NCBI RefSeq assembly: GCF_024223415.1
Contig: NZ_CP100503.1
DNA: 64,000 nt
Origin: Escherichia coli
GTDB lineage: Bacteria; Pseudomonadota; Gammaproteobacteria; Enterobacterales; Enterobacteriaceae
Strand: one strand, 5' to 3'
This document shows positions 23,101-46,581 of this stretch, piece after piece (within the stretch, counting starts at the first letter, position 1; every line of letters starts with the position of its first letter). The position numbers were made by a program, and so were the translations under genes. The notes under the pieces are model-generated. The model did no database searches. It was not told the origin of the DNA and saw only the letters and a list, made by a program, of their open reading frames with translations.

Positions 23101-23265
23101 GTATCGGCGTACACGCACACCTCTACAATGGTGGGCTGTATGGGGCTACCTTCGGGTAGGCTGGTTACCTTGGACGCCAGTAAGGCCAACTCCGTACAGT
23201 CCACCGCCAGCAAGATTGGTCTCTTCTGCGGTGGTTACATACCAACGTCTAAGGAGGCTGCCAAT

Positions 23266-23487
23266 ATGGCTACTATCCCTACCCCAACTCATCCTGAATT
23301 TATCTGGCGCTTTTACTCCTGCCAAAAACGTCACTATCACTTCGTTATTGCACCAACAGAAGATGAGGCCCGCTCTCAGCTTCCTGACGCCCCATGTATT
23401 TTCTCTGCCCGTTTTTCCACTGATTCACGCAATTCTCTCAGTTACTGGTGCCTCCCTGTTAACGCTTCTGCTCAGGAGGGACTATGA
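23266..23487 (+). CDS. icd: Icd-like small protein
   Basis: 74 aa from ATG at 23266 with AAGGAGG RBS; shares EFIWRFYSCQKRHYHFVIAPTEDEARSQLPDAPCIFSARF with copies B and C; stop overlaps ant start (ATGA). Confidence 0.6.
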   Translation: MATIPTPTHPEFIWRFYSCQKRHYHFVIAPTEDEARSQLPDAPCIFSARFSTDSRNSLSYWCLPVNASAQEGL

Positions 23488-24599
23488 GAACGTCATTAGT
23501 CACCCGTGAAGAGATGATCGAGGCAATTGAACAGCACACTGCCTGTATCAGTACCAGGGATATACCGGGCGTTATTGCCAACTACTTCATGATCACCAAA
23601 CAACTTTACCGGAGAAAGGACAAGAACGCGGTTCACCGCATTCTGCTAACCGATATCCGCGAATACCTGCTCGAACAGGGTCATCTGAATTACGCAACCG
23701 TCGCAGCCGAAACACGCAAGGAGGCACACAGAATGAAAGCAACTAACGTTAAATCAGAAAAAATTCATGCAACTTCAGTTCAGGAATCAGAGCTGGTGGT
23801 TGTTCAGAATCAGTCTGATGAAATTCCCGTTCTGGAATGGCTGGGAGTGCGTGTAGTGACAACCAAGATCCTTGCTAAGGGGTATGGGACCGATGCGGAT
23901 AACATCAAGAAGAACTTTTCCCGTAATGCTGAACGTTTTTGTGAAGGCAAGCATTTCTATAAAGTTATTGGAGATGATTTGAACAATTTGCGGGTGACTT
24001 TAAGTAACTCACAAAATCCCATCTCTCCTAAAGCCCGTTCACTCATCCTCTGGACAGAACGCGGCGCTGCCCGTCACGCTAAAATGCTCGAAACCGATCA
24101 GGCATGGGCATTCTTTGAAAAACTGGAAGACAGCTACTTCCGGCAAAAAGAACAGCAACCGGTTGCAATCCCCCAAACATTACCAGAAGCCCTACGCCTG
24201 GCTGCCGAACTGGCTGAACAAAAGCAGCTTCTGGAACAGAAAGCCCACCAGCTAAATCAGCAGCTGGTGGCCGCCGCTCCTAAGGTCGATTTTGCCGACC
24301 GGGTATCAGTAGCTAAAGGGATCCTGATTGGGAATTTTGCAAAGGTTGTTGGACTTAAGCAAAACGCGCTGTTTGCCTGGTTACGGGAGAACGGCATCCT
24401 GATAGCGTCCGGTGGACGTAAAAATGTGCCGTTCCAGCAGTACATCAACGCGGGGTATTTCACGGTGAAAGAAGTGGTGCTGGATGATGAAGATGGCTAC
24501 CAGATACGGTTGACGCCTCAATTAACGGGTAAAGGCCAGCAGTGGTTGACGCGTAAACTGCTCGATGCTGGCTTGTTAAAACCGGTGGCGGCTGAATAA
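23484..24599 (+). CDS. ant: Antirepressor Ant paralog A (KilA-C C-terminal domain)
   Basis: 371 aa; translationally coupled to icd; C-terminal domain shared with KilA (43795-44595) and other Ant copies. Confidence 0.7.
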   Translation: MRTSLVTREEMIEAIEQHTACISTRDIPGVIANYFMITKQLYRRKDKNAVHRILLTDIREYLLEQGHLNYATVAAETRKEAHRMKATNVKSEKIHATSVQESELVVVQNQSDEIPVLEWLGVRVVTTKILAKGYGTDADNIKKNFSRNAERFCEGKHFYKVIGDDLNNLRVTLSNSQNPISPKARSLILWTERGAARHAKMLETDQAWAFFEKLEDSYFRQKEQQPVAIPQTLPEALRLAAELAEQKQLLEQKAHQLNQQLVAAAPKVDFADRVSVAKGILIGNFAKVVGLKQNALFAWLRENGILIASGGRKNVPFQQYINAGYFTVKEVVLDDEDGYQIRLTPQLTGKGQQWLTRKLLDAGLLKPVAAE

Positions 24600-24606
24600 T
24601 GGAAGA

Positions 24607-24636
24607 ATGCCCGGTTGATGCCGGGCATAATTTATT
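24607..24636 (+). terminator. Hairpin between convergent ant A and c1
   Basis: ATGCCCGG-TTGATG-CCGGGCAT followed by AATTTATT; same hairpin recurs at 35220. Confidence 0.55.
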
Positions 24637-25483
24637 GCGCGCTTTCGGGGTTGTCGTTTACTGGCTGCCCCTTCTTGGTTTTACGGCTGCGCGTAACTGA
24701 TGCGGCTGACTTAACCTTTTTCTCTTCGCGAGTGATGGCAATTTGTTTTTTTACATTTTCAATATCTGCCAGGCGATATATTTTTGCTTGCGGCCAGCGG
24801 TCGCAGATGATCGGTTCTATGGAGTCATAAAGGCTAAATTTTGCTTTTTCGAATTCACCGTTGATGATAATTCCATCACGGAGAGTTTCATCGCAGATAA
24901 ACACGCCACACAGTGGCACATGGTAACTCACTGATTTACCGTTATTGTAGTTAGGACTACTGGAGATGTAGTGAACGCGCAGCATTGTTTCGCTAAAGCC
25001 GTGTACGCGCATACGGAATTTTTCATCCTCCGGGTACTGCTTCATTAGCTCTTTTGTTGCTTCCAGGTTCTCTATGTATTTCGCACTGTGCTCATTGAAC
25101 CCCGCGCTTTTTTGGATGCGAATGTCCTTATCAATCAGATGAATAATGCGGCCAGCGGTCATGTTGACGCTGTTTACAGCTTCTGTCTGATAGGTCGTAA
25201 CCTTACGCACACCGCGAAGGATGTTAGGCACAGGATATAAAATAGTCTTTGGGATATTGAGGTCTGGGTACTGTTCCAGTTCCCGCGCCATTAAAGTCCA
25301 TTTATCAATTTCAGCCTGAATGCTGTCAGTTTCTTTGAACGGTAGAACGACAACCGGGCGTACAGGACGACCGTCGCTGGCTGTATCAACGTGTTGGGCG
25401 CGTGCAACAGCTTTTTTTAGAAAGAGATCCCTGAAGCTGACGAACTCCTGGTACAGTTGTTCGCCGTAGACATAATTTATCAT
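24632..25483 (-). CDS. c1: C1 primary immunity repressor
   Basis: 283 aa; matches P1 C1 as I recall it; operators cluster upstream. Confidence 0.9.
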   Translation of the reverse strand: MINYVYGEQLYQEFVSFRDLFLKKAVARAQHVDTASDGRPVRPVVVLPFKETDSIQAEIDKWTLMARELEQYPDLNIPKTILYPVPNILRGVRKVTTYQTEAVNSVNMTAGRIIHLIDKDIRIQKSAGFNEHSAKYIENLEATKELMKQYPEDEKFRMRVHGFSETMLRVHYISSSPNYNNGKSVSYHVPLCGVFICDETLRDGIIINGEFEKAKFSLYDSIEPIICDRWPQAKIYRLADIENVKKQIAITREEKKVKSAASVTRSRKTKKGQPVNDNPESAQ

Positions 25484-25577: not shown

Positions 25578-25594
25578 AGATTTATTAGTGCATT
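25578..25594 (+). promoter_or_regulatory. Weak C1 operator-like site between coi and c1
   Basis: AGATTTATTAGTGCATT, degenerate match to the reverse-complement consensus. Confidence 0.35.
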
Positions 25595-25803
25595 TATTGT
25601 GAGTCTAACTGGTTAGTTGCCATGAGATATTCGATTGTGTCAGTGAGGTCATCCAGGTCGTCTTGGGTGATGCGGTACTCCTGATTGGATATCTTTGAGT
25701 AGTGTTCAGCAATGGCGCGGGCAGCGTCGGTTTCGGCAGGGTCTACAGATAAAGCGTTAGAGCAATATCTAACGTCGTCGATGGTTGGTTGAATGAAAGC
25801 CAT
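25594..25803 (-). CDS. coi: C1 inactivator Coi
   Basis: 69 aa ORF immediately upstream of c1 on the same strand. Confidence 0.8.
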   Translation of the reverse strand: MAFIQPTIDDVRYCSNALSVDPAETDAARAIAEHYSKISNQEYRITQDDLDDLTDTIEYLMATNQLDSQ

Positions 25804-26185: not shown

Positions 26186-26219
26186 ATAACTTCGTATAGC
26201 AAACATTATACGAAGTTAT
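26186..26219 (+). other. lox: lox recombination site (loxP-like, spacer variant)
   Basis: ATAACTTCGTATA-GCAAACAT-TATACGAAGTTAT: perfect 13-bp Cre arms, spacer differs from canonical GCATACAT at one position. Confidence 0.85.
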
Positions 26220-26381
26220 CTTAAGGGTTATTGAACATGATTAATTTACCTGTAAATCCATACAGTTCAATACCTTATCAGGTCAAATAGTGATCACTTG
26301 ATCATTTGATCAAGGTTGCGCTACGTAAAATCTGCGAAATGTTGGCAGTGTTTGTGCTCCAGATTTCGCGTAGCGCATATA

Positions 26382-26456: not shown

Positions 26457-26759
26457 ATGAAGATTATTTCGGTAAAAACATTGAGGGATTTTTGGTCTGT
26501 GAATCCCGATGCAGAACAACCATTAAAGGCCTGGGTTGACGAAGTCTCCAAGGCCACCTGGAAAAGCCCGGCTGATATCAAAGCGCAGTACCGATCTGCC
26601 AGCATTCTTAAAAACAGGCGGGTTGTCTTCAACATCAAAGGTAATGACTACAGATTAATTGTTGCAATTGCTTATCAGCGAGGATGGATGTTCGTTAAGT
26701 TTATTGGAACACATAAGGAATACGATGCCATCGACGCGGATACAATAGAGCTGGAGTAA
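26457..26759 (+). CDS. higB: HigB-family type II toxin (RelE/ParE superfamily mRNA interferase)
   Basis: 100 aa; C-terminal THKEYD motif and toxin-first gene order. Confidence 0.7.
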   Translation: MKIISVKTLRDFWSVNPDAEQPLKAWVDEVSKATWKSPADIKAQYRSASILKNRRVVFNIKGNDYRLIVAIAYQRGWMFVKFIGTHKEYDAIDADTIELE

Positions 26760-26762
26760 ATC

Positions 26763-27122
26763 ATGAACATTAAACCTATCCGTACAGAACAAGATTATCA
26801 GGCCGCACTACGCGCGGTCGAACCTATGTTCGATAACGAACCGGAAATGAACACCCCGGAAGGTGATTTCTTTGAGATAATGTGCCTGCTTATTGAAGAG
26901 TATGAAAAAAGACATTACCCAATTGAACCGCCTACACCCATTGAAGCGATTAAGTTCCGTATGGAACAGCAAGGGTTGACAGTGAAAGATCTGGAACCGG
27001 CGATTGGTAAGTCGAACCGTGTTTACGAAGTTCTGAATGGAACGCGAAATTTAACGTTACCAATGATTAGGCGTTTGCACGTACAGTTTGGCATTCCTCT
27101 CGAAAGTCTGGTTGGTGTGTGA
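26763..27122 (+). CDS. higA: HigA-family antitoxin (XRE-type HTH)
   Basis: 119 aa; C-terminal HTH (GKSNRVYEVLNGTRNLTLPMIRRL) resembling E. coli HigA. Confidence 0.7.
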   Translation: MNIKPIRTEQDYQAALRAVEPMFDNEPEMNTPEGDFFEIMCLLIEEYEKRHYPIEPPTPIEAIKFRMEQQGLTVKDLEPAIGKSNRVYEVLNGTRNLTLPMIRRLHVQFGIPLESLVGV

Positions 27123-27128
27123 CTTAAA

Positions 27129-28181
27129 ATGTCTAATGTCCTGACCGTACACCAAAATTTGCCTGCATTACCGGTCGATGCAACGAGTGATGAGGTTCGC
27201 AAGAACCTGATGGACATGTTCAGGGATCGCCAGGCGTTTTCTGAGCATACCTGGAAAATGCTTCTGTCCGTTTGCCGGTCGTGGGCGGCATGGTGCAAGT
27301 TGAATAACCGGAAATGGTTTCCCGCAGAACCTGAAGATGTTCGCGATTATCTTCTATATCTTCAGGCGCGCGGTCTGGCAGTAAAAACTATCCAGCAACA
27401 TTTGGGCCAGCTAAACATGCTTCATCGTCGGTCCGGGCTGCCACGACCAAGTGACAGCAATGCTGTTTCACTGGTTATGCGGCGGATCCGAAAAGAAAAC
27501 GTTGATGCCGGTGAACGTGCAAAACAGGCTCTAGCGTTCGAACGCACTGATTTCGACCAGGTTCGTTCACTCATGGAAAATAGCGATCGCTGCCAGGATA
27601 TACGTAATCTGGCATTTCTGGGGATTGCTTATAACACCCTGTTACGTATAGCCGAAATTGCCAGGATCAGGGTTAAAGATATCTCACGTACTGACGGTGG
27701 GAGAATGTTAATCCATATTGGCAGAACGAAAACGCTGGTTAGCACCGCAGGTGTAGAGAAGGCACTTAGCCTGGGGGTAACTAAACTGGTTGAGCGATGG
27801 ATTTCTGTCTCTGGTGTAGCTGATGATCCGAATAACTACCTGTTTTGCCGCGTCAGAAAAAATGGTGTTGCCGCGCCATCACCCACCAGCCAGCTATCAA
27901 CTCGCGCCCTGGAAGGGATTTTTGAAGCAACTCACCGATTGATTTACGGGGCTAAGGATGACTCTGGCCAGAGGTACCTGGCCTGGTCTGGACACAGTGC
28001 CCGTGTCGGAGCCGCGCGAGATATGGCCCGCGCCGGAGTTTCAATACCGGAGATCATGCAAGCTGGTGGCTGGACCAACGTAAATATTGTCATGAACTAT
28101 ATCCGTAACCTGGATAGTGAAACAGGGGCAATGGTGCGCCTGCTGGAAGTTGACATCCTCCCCCACCTTCGCACTTCGTGA
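27129..28181 (+). CDS. cre: Cre tyrosine recombinase with altered C-terminus
   Basis: 350 aa; matches P1 Cre as I recall it up to ...MVRLLE, then VDILPHLRTS encoded by IS end instead of DGD. Confidence 0.9.
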   Translation: MSNVLTVHQNLPALPVDATSDEVRKNLMDMFRDRQAFSEHTWKMLLSVCRSWAAWCKLNNRKWFPAEPEDVRDYLLYLQARGLAVKTIQQHLGQLNMLHRRSGLPRPSDSNAVSLVMRRIRKENVDAGERAKQALAFERTDFDQVRSLMENSDRCQDIRNLAFLGIAYNTLLRIAEIARIRVKDISRTDGGRMLIHIGRTKTLVSTAGVEKALSLGVTKLVERWISVSGVADDPNNYLFCRVRKNGVAAPSPTSQLSTRALEGIFEATHRLIYGAKDDSGQRYLAWSGHSARVGAARDMARAGVSIPEIMQAGGWTNVNIVMNYIRNLDSETGAMVRLLEVDILPHLRTS

Positions 28182-28200
28182 CTCAGGAGGGGGATTCCCA

Positions 28201-29433
28201 TTAGTGGGTGACGGCTGATTGCTCAGCGTCTGGTTCCTGCTTCAACGGGCGGTCTGACTGCACCGTCCCTCCACAGGCAAGTACGGCGTGCCCCGCCGCT
28301 AAAATGTTGCGAGCGCCGTTTACATCGGCGTTCGCTGTATATCCACAAGCCCGACACACGAATTTACTTTGTGTCAGGCGGTTTTCTTTCGCTGTATGAC
28401 CACAGCACGCGCAACGCTGGCTTGTGTACGCTGGCGGAACAGCAAGCACCTGACCACCACGCCAGAGCTGCTTGTACTCAAGCTGGCGGCGCATTTCATA
28501 CCAGCCCTGATCCAGTATCGAACGGTTTAAACCTGATTTTGCCCGGACATTGCGCCCCGGCTGGCTGACCGTACCCGCTGCTGACTTTGACATGTTGCTG
28601 ACCTTCAAATCCTCAATGACTATCATTGCGTGGTTTTTGCTGACGGTCGTTGTGACTTTGTGAAGGTAGTCCCTGCGGATATTTGCAATACGGGAATGCA
28701 GTTGCTGTATTTTGCGTTTCTGCTTCTGCCAGTTGTTGCTGAATTTGACCCTGCGGCTTAACTGTCGCTGAAGTCTCGCCAGCTTCTTCTGGTTTTTCTG
28801 AAAACTGTTTACAGGTTCAAAGACTGTGCCATCTGACAGCGTGGCGAGTTTAGCCACGCCAGCATCCAGACCGACTATCGTTGTGCTTGTGTGATTTGGT
28901 TCTGCCGTTTCAATTTCAACCTGAAACGAGATATACCACTGTCCCGCTAACTGACTGATTGTCGCATTTTTGATTTTACCGTTCACACGTTGAGATTGCC
29001 GGAATTTTACCCACCCAAGACCTGACGGTAGCTTCACTCTGCGATTTTCAAGGCAGCAATATTTCTCAAAGTTCACAAAACGGATTGAGTCTCTGCCCTC
29101 ATTTTTTCGTTTCCATACCGGAGCCTTAGCTGCGAGCTTTTTATCAAAACAACGTTTCCATGCGGTATGCAGGTCTTTCAGCTTTTGTTGCAGATTGTCG
29201 GTATAAGCATCCTGTAAGAAGATATATTCCGGCATTTTTTTCCACACTGTAATCATCCGGTTCAACTCGAAAGCCGAAGGTAACTTTTCGCCTGAGCCAA
29301 GTACGCGCTTTGTCTCCGCAAGACCTAAATTCCAGACAAAACGGGCGCAACCACATAACTGCCGCAAACGCTGCGACTGTTCATGCGTTGGTTCCAGTCT
29401 GAATTTGTAGGCTTTCAGGATTAGCATCATCAT
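28201..29433 (-). CDS. tnpB: TnpB (OrfB-family RNA-guided nuclease-like protein)
   Basis: 410 aa; C-terminal RuvC-like and zinc-finger region ([13 protein letters not shown]...[18 protein letters not shown]). Confidence 0.85.
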
Positions 29434-29485
29434 TCAGTGTGTAGTAGATTTTCTTGCAATATTACTGTTTTTACGGCCAACCTCA

Positions 29486-29890
29486 ATGCAAAAATACAAA
29501 ATCAATCGTTCAAGACATGCTGCCTTCCTTTTGCATGTTCATCTTGTCTTTGTAACAAAATACCGTCGAAAGATACTGGGAGAGTTACACTGTGCAGCAT
29601 TCCATCAGTATGCAGCAGAAGTCTGCCGTGACTTTGGGGCAGAACTTAAAGAAAGTAACGGAGATGTCGATCATGTCCACATGCTGATCGAATACCCACC
29701 AACAGTGCAGCTTTCGGTACTGGTTAACTCACTGAAAGCAGTGACATCCCGCCGTCTGCGAAACGAATTTCTTGATTTGCGGGGGGCATACGGAAAAGCC
29801 GTGCTCTGGTCGAGGTCATACTTTGCTGGCTCCTGCGGAGGTGCGCCGCTGGAAGTTGTGAAGCAATATATTCAACATCAGCGAGGCTGA
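29486..29890 (+). CDS. tnpA: IS200-type Y1 (HUH) transposase TnpA
   Basis: 134 aa; HVHLVF, HuH motif DHVHMLI, catalytic Tyr region WSRSYFAGS. Confidence 0.85.
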   Translation: MQKYKINRSRHAAFLLHVHLVFVTKYRRKILGELHCAAFHQYAAEVCRDFGAELKESNGDVDHVHMLIEYPPTVQLSVLVNSLKAVTSRRLRNEFLDLRGAYGKAVLWSRSYFAGSCGGAPLEVVKQYIQHQRG

Positions 29891-29995
29891 GCACCCTTCG
29901 GGCTTTTCAAGCCCGTCCAAATTCCCCTGCCGCCTTATGTCGGCGGGAGTACCCTTTGGAAGTTAAGATGGCGATTAGCCATTAACGCGTAAATG

Positions 29996-30580: not shown

Positions 30581-31645
30581 TCATTCAGCCGCCACAGGTT
30601 TTAACAAGCCAGCATCGAGCAGTTTACGCGTCAACCACTGCTGGCCTTTCCCCGTTAATTGGGGCGTCAGCCGTATCTGGTAGCCCTCTTCATCATCCAG
30701 CACCACTTCTTTCACTGTGAAATATCCGGCGTTTATGTACTGCTGGAACGGTACATTTTTACGTCCACCGGACGCTATCAGGATGCCGTTCTCCCGTAAC
30801 CAGGCAAACAGCGCGTTTTGCTTAAGTCCAACAACCTTTGCAAAATTCCCAATCAGGATTCCATTAGCCACTGATACCCGGTCGGCAAAATCGACTTTAG
30901 GAGCGGCGGCCACCAGCTGCTGATTTAGCTGGTGGGCTTTCTGTTCCAGAAGTTGCTTTTGTTCAGCCAACTCGGCAGCCAGGCGGAGGGCTTCGGGGAG
31001 TGTCTGGGGGATCGCTGGAGAAGCAGCGCTAACCTGCTGCAACTCCTCCAGCTTGTCGATCAACGAACGGCGGACCGCTTTTGACTCGCGCGCGGCAACT
31101 CGCAGGGCTTGTTTGTAGGTCATGGTTATGACCTCAAAAGAGCGCCCAGCCCTTGTGCCATGGGATTTTACGAAAGTTTCGTAAAATTCCCCATCAAGTT
31201 CATCCTTAATTCTATTGAGAAAATCGTTATTGCGGATCTCATTTTCCCCACATAGCTTGCGCGCCTCATTGACCATCTTTAACAGTGTCTGGCTGTCGAT
31301 TGTGTCGCCCGTACTGGGGATAACATCCATGGCTGGTAGTGGTGTGGATTCTATCAAAGGCTTTGTAACGACAACATCTGGTTTGCTTGCTTTCATTCTG
31401 TGTGCCTCCTTGCGTGCTTCGGCGGTTACGGTTGCATAATCAAGACGACCCTGTTCGAGCAGGTATTCACGGATATCAGTTAGCAGAATGCGGTGAACCG
31501 CGTTCTTGTCCTTTCTCCGGTAAAGTTGTTTGGTGATCATGAAGTAGTTGGCTATAACACCAGGAATGTCCCTGGCGCTGATACAGATTGTGTGCTGTTC
31601 AATAGCCTCGATCATTTCTTCACGGGTAACTAATGACGTTCTCAT
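30581..31645 (-). CDS. ant: Antirepressor Ant paralog B (KilA-C C-terminal domain)
   Basis: 354 aa; N- and C-terminal regions near-identical to Ant A/C, central region resembles Ant D. Confidence 0.7.
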   Translation of the reverse strand: MRTSLVTREEMIEAIEQHTICISARDIPGVIANYFMITKQLYRRKDKNAVHRILLTDIREYLLEQGRLDYATVTAEARKEAHRMKASKPDVVVTKPLIESTPLPAMDVIPSTGDTIDSQTLLKMVNEARKLCGENEIRNNDFLNRIKDELDGEFYETFVKSHGTRAGRSFEVITMTYKQALRVAARESKAVRRSLIDKLEELQQVSAASPAIPQTLPEALRLAAELAEQKQLLEQKAHQLNQQLVAAAPKVDFADRVSVANGILIGNFAKVVGLKQNALFAWLRENGILIASGGRKNVPFQQYINAGYFTVKEVVLDDEEGYQIRLTPQLTGKGQQWLTRKLLDAGLLKPVAAE

Positions 31646-31863: not shown

Positions 31864-32023
31864 AGTTACGGCCTCACAAGTTGAATTAACAACCTGCTAC
31901 CCGCTGTCAAACAGGTGGCAGGACGTGACAGGGTTGACAGACTGGCACTTGTGAAACCAGCAGGCCGAAGCCTCCCCATCACGCCCCACCATAATTCGGG
32001 CGTAACGCGGTTTTACGGACACA

Positions 32024-33721: not shown

Positions 33722-33881
33722 CATGTCCGTATAACCGCGTTACGCCCGAATTATGGTGGGGCGTGATGGGGAGGCTTCGGCCTGCTGGTTTCGTAAGTGC
33801 CAGTCTGCTAACCCCGTCACGTCCTGCCACCTGTTTAGCAGCGGGTCGCAGGTTGTTTTATCAACTTACGAGGCCGTAACT

Positions 33882-45766: not shown

Positions 45767-45948
45767 TACAATCGTTACGGGTGCTTGAGGCTATCTGCTT
45801 CAGGCATTACCCGAAAAGCAGATAGAAGAAAGCCCCAGATAACATTACGCGTCCTGCAAGACGCTTAACATTAATCTGAGGCCATCTCTATGCTTAGCAT
45901 ACGTAGATTAACCCTCTCCCCTTTTAAGGAGCAAGGAATTTTTTACTG

Positions 45949-46581
45949 CTATGCCGCATTTCCAATTATGGATTCAGCGACCAGAACAACCCCATGCTTA
46001 CTTCGATCTGGGTGTTCACTCCATATCTCGGATTCAGGAATACTTACCCCGTCATAGCAAACACGTTCGCCGTCAAACGGGTAATACTGAGCGGCATCGG
46101 TGTCAAGGATAAACACTTTTAGCTCGGAAGAGCGACGGGCGATGTGTTGCCAAAGAGCTTTTCCACCTTCGTATTGCTCATTATCACTGAGCAAAACAAC
46201 ACCAGCTTTTGAGGCTACGGTTTCGTAAACAAAAGTAGCTAAACCGACATCCCGGACGGTTCCATCAACCACGATACCTTCAATCTGGGCAACATCGCTA
46301 TCCTCCCAGAACTTCCTTACCAGTACGCCTTCAAGCTGCGGGCGACGTTGAAGTTCAAGAGTAGCGACAACCTTATGGCGCATATCACCATCGATAATAG
46401 AAGGCGCAGCCTCTATTACAGCTGCAAATGGGGTTTTGGAATCCCATATAACCTGGTAAAGCACACCCTGGATGGTAACTCCGTCCAGGATCGAAAATCG
46501 ACGAGCGACAGTACCCGGGGAGTACGACATTGGAATCACAGCCATTTTAGAGTCCCCCTTTAACAGTACAGGCACAAACAT
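45949..46581 (-). CDS. Hypothetical protein
   Basis: 210 aa ORF. Confidence 0.4.
   Translation of the reverse strand: MFVPVLLKGDSKMAVIPMSYSPGTVARRFSILDGVTIQGVLYQVIWDSKTPFAAVIEAAPSIIDGDMRHKVVATLELQRRPQLEGVLVRKFWEDSDVAQIEGIVVDGTVRDVGLATFVYETVASKAGVVLLSDNEQYEGGKALWQHIARRSSELKVFILDTDAAQYYPFDGERVCYDGVSIPESEIWSEHPDRSKHGVVLVAESIIGNAA

Follow-up and report, generated by a model that had tools for sequence, protein, structure and literature searches.

A natural one-base spacer variant of the lox site in a P1-like phage-plasmid of Escherichia coli

The lox site described here lies in a 64,000-nucleotide stretch of an Escherichia coli contig (NZ_CP100503.1, hereafter the window). It is of the P1 Cre-lox type and, judged by its sequence, represents a new natural allele of this well-known site. 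The best reading, to which we assign a probability of about three in four, is that of a working lox site of a P1-like phage-plasmid that has undergone a recent and private A-to-T point mutation at position 5 of its spacer. The allele would most likely be a harmless rare one, functional with itself and presenting only a partial block to recombination with standard loxP.

The site, its cre gene and its P1-type surroundings

On the plus strand the site reads ATAACTTCGTATA-GCAAACAT-TATACGAAGTTAT (Table 1). Its two arms carry no mismatch to those of loxP over 26 positions. A search with the arms and an N8 spacer (both strands, up to 3 arm mismatches) returned this site as a single match in the window and thus no second or pseudo-lox partner site; the number of matches expected by chance is 0.00 (0 of 100 dinucleotide-preserving shuffles). 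Read toward cre, the spacer is GCAAACAT instead of the canonical GCATACAT, that is ATGTTTGC instead of ATGTATGC. The variant base is window position 26202, an A where canonical loxP has a T on the same strand. It corresponds to a single A-to-T change at spacer position 5 (numbering of ATGTATGC), which converts the central TA into TT. This position is located inside the 6-bp strand-exchange region (spacer positions 2-7; cleavage positions according to PMC4777119). A loxP site in the strict sense has ATGTATGC as its spacer; with ATGTTTGC, one mismatch away, the present site is a lox variant. The spacer is nevertheless 8 bp long and asymmetric (the reverse complement of GCAAACAT differs from GCAAACAT) and the site therefore retains its directionality. 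The earlier note had described 13-bp arms identical to those of loxP together with a one-base spacer variant, a description that direct reading, the perfect arms and the alignment with plasmid AP026456 prove exact.

Table 1. Coordinates of the lox site, the neighbouring genes and the insertion element in the window.
Feature	Position	Strand	Remarks
Left Cre-binding arm, 13 bp	26186..26198	+	Equal to loxP arm ATAACTTCGTATA; read directly and found by arm-pattern search
Spacer, 8 bp, GCAAACAT (= ATGTTTGC)	26199..26206	+	Direct reading and alignments
Right Cre-binding arm, 13 bp	26207..26219	+	Equal to loxP arm TATACGAAGTTAT; read directly and found by arm-pattern search
c1 repressor gene	24632..25483	-	Left synteny marker of the P1 lox region; NCBIfam phage_rep_C1 NF041318, 609 bits
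coi (C1 inactivator)	25594..25803	-	Between c1 and lox as in P1
HigB/RelE-like toxin	26457-26759	+	Depositors' annotation of AP026456 and NZ_CP128972
HigA-like antitoxin	26763-27122	+	Depositors' annotation of AP026456 and NZ_CP128972
cre, 350 aa	27129..28181	+	
IS200/IS605-family insertion, 1815 bp	28150..29964		After codon 340 of cre
tnpB of the IS200/IS605-family element, 410 aa	28201-29433	-	
tnpA of the IS200/IS605-family element, 134 aa	29486-29890	+	

The genes around the site identify the window as part of a P1-like phage-plasmid. P1 and its relatives have the same gene order (c1, coi, lox, cre). Searches with the region yield 23 phage records (86.7-98.8% identity; about 95% for P1 and P7) together with 699 plasmid records, most of which are 95-99% identical. 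The interval between lox and cre is occupied by a higBA-like cassette (26457-27122), where P1 and most of its relatives carry cra. This arrangement is common to AP026456 and NZ_CP128972. No NCBIfam match was obtained for the HigB/RelE-like and HigA-like pair, and the antitoxin gene shows 86.7% DNA identity to a gene of phage D6. Homology to the cra-type relatives stops at 26377 and restarts at 27127, so that the replacement begins ~158 bp to the right of lox. The possibility that lox itself is a mosaic breakpoint was considered and rejected, since both of its sides are identical to AP026456 and the switch from cra to higBA takes place at this distance.

Immediately to the right of lox (26236-26245), the window and AP026456 carry GAACATGATTAATT whereas most relatives carry GATCAATT. 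A Dam GATC site near lox has thus been lost in the lineage of these two elements. The cre promoters of P1 have been described in the region of this lost site.

Other parts of the window include three copies of the C4 antisense RNA (Rfam RF01695), at 23124-23211 (+), 31911-31996 (-) and 33749-33834 (+). Each adjoins an icd-like ORF and a KilA/antirepressor ORF (23484-24599, 30581-31645 and around 34-35 kb), and the window contains two c4-a1b1 target elements as well. For P1, a single immI module is the usual description. A match to the Rfam sok antitoxin RNA (45779-45953, plus strand, 91 bits) points to a post-segregational killing locus of the hok/sok type in another part of the element.

A cognate cre with an intact tyrosine-recombinase active site is found close to the lox site (27129-28181). 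Its product aligns with the crystallised P1 Cre of the PDB with a score of 757 bits and is about 99% identical to it over residues 1-340, where L4V and A252P are the only differences from P1 Cre; both are also present in AP026456. Residues R173, K201, H289, R292, W315 and Y324 are all conserved and fall in invariant alignment columns. The 3' end of the gene is modified by the IS200/IS605-family insertion: read-through into the IS replaces the terminal DGD of Cre by VDILPHLRTS (three residues lost and seven more added). An IS at codon 340 of cre was found in no PLSDB record, and AP026456 does not carry it. Residues 341-343 directly follow the C-terminal helix by which Cre docks on the neighbouring subunit, and the altered C-terminus may therefore affect Cre activity.

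Nearest relative, rarity of the allele and census of natural lox sites

Locally, the closest match is with E. coli plasmid pMTY1886_NA2 (AP026456), whose spacer is the canonical GCATACAT. Between about 23.5 kb and 28.15 kb of the window (>4.6 kb) the two differ at base 26202 only, suggesting that the spacer change is recent and private. The allele is thus a singleton that a single mutational step separates from a sequenced relative. Rarity was estimated with a 54-bp megablast query. The longest exact word that this query has in common with canonical loxP is shorter than 28 bases and it therefore seeds only on sites with a closely similar spacer. It gave no match in 50,697 phage records. The allele is also absent from 72,556 PLSDB plasmids and 5,426 complete E. 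coli genomes, where the query matched only two ETEC plasmids; these carry another spacer (GCGAACAT, equivalent to ATGTTCGC). The exact 34-mer of the window site occurs neither in the species-representative genome collection nor in the metagenome collection, and the allele is not among the 95 IMG/VR loci with perfect arms. The survey of P1-like genomes for the same spacer, which the earlier note had in view, thus reveals no second carrier in phages, PLSDB, E. coli genomes, IMG/VR, species genomes or metagenomes.

A singleton of this type might reflect a sequencing or assembly error at base 26202, the true site being canonical loxP. Absence from all of these collections would be expected in that case, as would the fact that this base is the sole difference from AP026456 in >4.6 kb. 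Perfect inverted repeats are moreover subject to systematic errors by some sequencing platforms, and lox is such a repeat. However, the lack of any other substitution or indel with respect to AP026456 over this length indicates that the assembly is locally clean. In addition, the change is a substitution and not a homopolymer-length error, and independent complete plasmids carry comparable natural lox variants, among them ATGTTCGC with the same A-to-T change at position 5. A base-calling error is therefore an unlikely explanation.

About 13% of complete E. coli genomes contain P1-like plasmids, and canonical loxP and an active-looking cre are found in nearly all of these plasmids. Lox was found in 705 PLSDB plasmid records, of which 668 are canonical (at least 99% identity to loxP) and 37 non-canonical (17 with one mismatch, 12 with two or three, 8 weaker). 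The complete E. coli genomes contributed 697 records (693 of 5,426 genomes), 678 canonical and 19 non-canonical (15 with one mismatch, 3 with two or three, one weaker). All 47 sites on metagenome contigs, which were anchored on the P1 right flank, are canonical. IMG/VR, where perfect arms were required, provided 97 sites at 95 loci (93 canonical and 4 non-canonical). Non-canonical lox sites are therefore found in about 2-5% of P1-like elements and the canonical spacer in at least 95%. Rare spacer alleles are thus a normal low-frequency feature of wild P1-like elements.

A scan of species-representative genomes with an N spacer was unfit as a census because loxP copies located at scaffold joins of unrelated draft assemblies dominated its output. 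Dozens of perfect loxP-armed sites among the matches listed (L098-L177) are situated at contig ends and scaffold joins, or close to them, in unrelated draft genomes, including those of Candidatus Paracaedibacter symbiosus (NZ_JQAK01), Legionella tunisiensis (NZ_CALJ01) and Sediminibacterium salmoneum (NZ_KI866530). These copies look like linker remnants left in public assemblies by Cre-lox circularisation during paired-end library preparation rather than biology.

The natural alleles include ATGTTCGC, carried by the pig ETEC plasmids CP122667 / NZ_CP122664 and by IMG/VR locus L018, and ATGTATAC, which equals the engineered lox511 and is a natural site in E. coli p13C1065T-3 (NZ_CP019262.1, L218:2501-2534). 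The latter is a 150-kb IncFIB/P1-like plasmid of cointegrate size. Allele ATATATGC was found in pPSJ-07_1, ATGAACGC in IMG/VR locus L064 and ATGTGTGT in IMG/VR locus L039, which has divergent flanks. Two arm variants are carried by pFORC64.1 and pEC18-3. Allele ATGCATGC is palindromic and is located in a P1 context (L041:1524-1557, IMGVR_UViG_2684622670_000009). With such a symmetric spacer directionality should be lost, and Cre could invert as well as delete between two sites of this type. The Cre proteins of elements with variant lox sites are 97-99% identical to that of the window.

Only the three central spacer positions vary among 84 IMG/VR loci. Beyond these loci, changes are observed at position 7 (natural lox511), position 3 and position 8 (one divergent IMG/VR locus). 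A hypermutable spacer, for example one subject to Cre-induced mutation, was rejected as an explanation: 3/8 spacer sites vary in the 84 loci compared to about 27% of 300 flank positions, which represents no excess of spacer variation.

The ATGTTCGC allele shares with the window its P1-like context, its arms and the A-to-T change at position 5, and the Cre proteins of the two are 99% identical. It differs in carrying a second change (position 6, T to C) and in its flanking haplotype (3 differences in the 25 bp to the left). Because of this different haplotype, the position 5 changes in the two alleles are probably independent. The window allele is formally the one-step intermediate between loxP and ATGTTCGC.

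Expected compatibility of the spacer and competing explanations

With respect to P1 loxP (ATAACTTCGTATA-ATGTATGC-TATACGAAGTTAT), the window site has the same arms, an 8-bp asymmetric spacer and the same place between coi/c1 and cre. It differs by the A-to-T change at position 5 (central TA to TT), while the element as a whole differs from P1 by the higBA-like cassette in place of cra and by the IS read-through at the Cre C-terminus. The engineered sites lox511 (ATGTATaC), lox5171 (ATGTgTaC) and lox2272 (AaGTATcC) also combine wild-type arms with a change in the 6-bp crossover region, and lox5171, like the window site, is altered at position 5. However, the useful engineered sites, which strongly exclude loxP, are altered at position 7 or at positions 2 and 7, whereas the window site is altered at position 5 alone. 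Furthermore, it is a natural site, in contrast to these three and to the engineered series of Lee & Saito.

Spacer identity determines partner compatibility in Cre recombination (PMC11260471; PMC1479339), as the earlier note had stated. Its further proposal, that the variant may recombine poorly with loxP, is probably overstated for position 5. The interpretation in the earlier note draws on generic Cre-lox knowledge and is only partly supported. Compatibility with the wild type is strongly affected by position 7, less by positions 3-6 and not at all by positions 1 and 8 (PMC4777119). In the study of Sheren 2007, in vitro recombination still reached 22% for the best non-matching pair, with its difference at one position, and 12/21 unmatched pairs recombined to completion in Cre-expressing E. 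coli (PMC2018622). A-T mismatches were the commonest type among the cross-reacting pairs of Cautereels 2024 (PMC10850332). The best expectation for ATGTTTGC with loxP would be a reduced and leaky recombination, strict incompatibility being unlikely. It is also doubtful that ATGTTTGC would be a full member of a mutually exclusive lox class such as lox511 / lox2272, since single changes at positions 3-6 are only partly excluding.

According to the account given in PMC1479339, all 24 single spacer substitutions were assayed by Lee & Saito 1998, and the claim of the earlier note is therefore not new. ATGTTTGC should belong to this set of single substitutions. From the naming pattern, it is presumably Lee & Saito mutant '52'. 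A literature text search for ATGTTTGC or GCAAACAT together with lox/loxP retrieved only unrelated primer sequences, and neither string occurs in the main texts of Missirlis 2006, Sheren 2007 and PMC9586403.

Recombination of ATGTTTGC with itself is likely to be kept, because 84% of 6,000 matched non-canonical spacers recombine efficiently and the sequence preference of Cre concerns the outer spacer positions A4', G3 and C4 (PMC11260471). The central TA is dispensable for recombination (PMC2018622). Earlier studies (Hoess 1986 and Lee & Saito 1998, cited in PMC2018622 and PMC1479339) considered it to be important for strand exchange. If so, self-recombination of ATGTTTGC could be noticeably weaker than that of loxP.

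The Cre-lox system of P1 serves in the resolution of plasmid dimers and is able to close terminally redundant infecting DNA into circles. In the explanation that we favour, the element's own Cre would bind the two unchanged 13-bp arms and cut at the edges of the 6-bp crossover region. The recombining copies would always come from one element, either as sister plasmids in a dimer or as the terminally redundant ends of an infecting genome. Since both partners would then have the same spacer, the mutation would cost the element little; indeed, the cost of a new spacer mutation would be set only by the way Cre handles that spacer. Dimer resolution and cyclisation would go on, possibly with some loss of efficiency owing to the missing central TA step. 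Exchange with a canonical loxP on another P1-like element would generate a mismatch (A.A or T.T) midway along the exchanged segment, so that recombination would be reduced but not abolished. Under the strand-swapping model, position 5 would be the least damaging place for such a mismatch, as it is three to four bases from either ligation point. At least 95% of P1-like elements retain the canonical spacer, a hint that its sequence may not be entirely neutral.

A broader interpretation would be that wild P1-like phage-plasmids possess functionally distinct lox types, namely ATGTTTGC (window), ATGTTCGC, ATGTATAC, ATATATGC, ATGCATGC, ATGAACGC and ATGTGTGT, which partly isolate lineages from mutual Cre recombination. 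The window allele would then be a fresh first step of a switch toward the ETEC ATGTTCGC. We regard this as speculative and improbable.

It is very unlikely that the spacer change was adaptive, creating a private lox type that insulates the element from Cre-mediated co-integration or crossing-over with loxP-bearing P1-like elements. Several natural spacer alleles do exist while arms and Cre stay constant, and the presence of lox in 693/5426 E. coli genomes makes encounters plausible. The sole difference from AP026456 also falls in the 8-bp spacer, an event with an a priori chance of about 8 in 4,650, or 0.2%, but this figure was calculated after the fact, for a site that had drawn attention by lying in lox, and we treat the location of this lone difference as chance. 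Moreover, every variant allele is rare and the canonical one prevails at the frequency given above, a pattern unlike that of diversifying selection. In the 84 IMG/VR loci, spacer variability does not exceed that of the flanks, and a single central mismatch is expected to be leaky.

Least probable of all is that lox is beginning to decay under relaxed selection following impairment of Cre by the IS at the 3' end of its gene: the insertion does replace the last three Cre codons and add seven residues, and neither it nor the spacer change is present in AP026456, but the arms are perfect, Cre residues 1-340 are intact including all catalytic residues, one base has changed in the whole c1-cre region, and C-terminal Cre fusions are widely used and active.

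Meaning for the Cre-lox system

The working lox site with a recent point mutation remains the preferred reading. Its practical message for Cre-lox biology is small. The window allele is private and shows no sign of selection, and such a single-base change leaves our understanding of the Cre-lox system unaltered. From the published account of the 1998 series, the same single substitution belongs to those already assayed in vitro. A modest gain comes from the census, which reveals a small allele spectrum in wild P1-like plasmids, including a natural lox511 and a symmetric spacer. These natural alleles display the spacer changes that are tolerated in the wild and could serve as naturally validated heterospecific sites.
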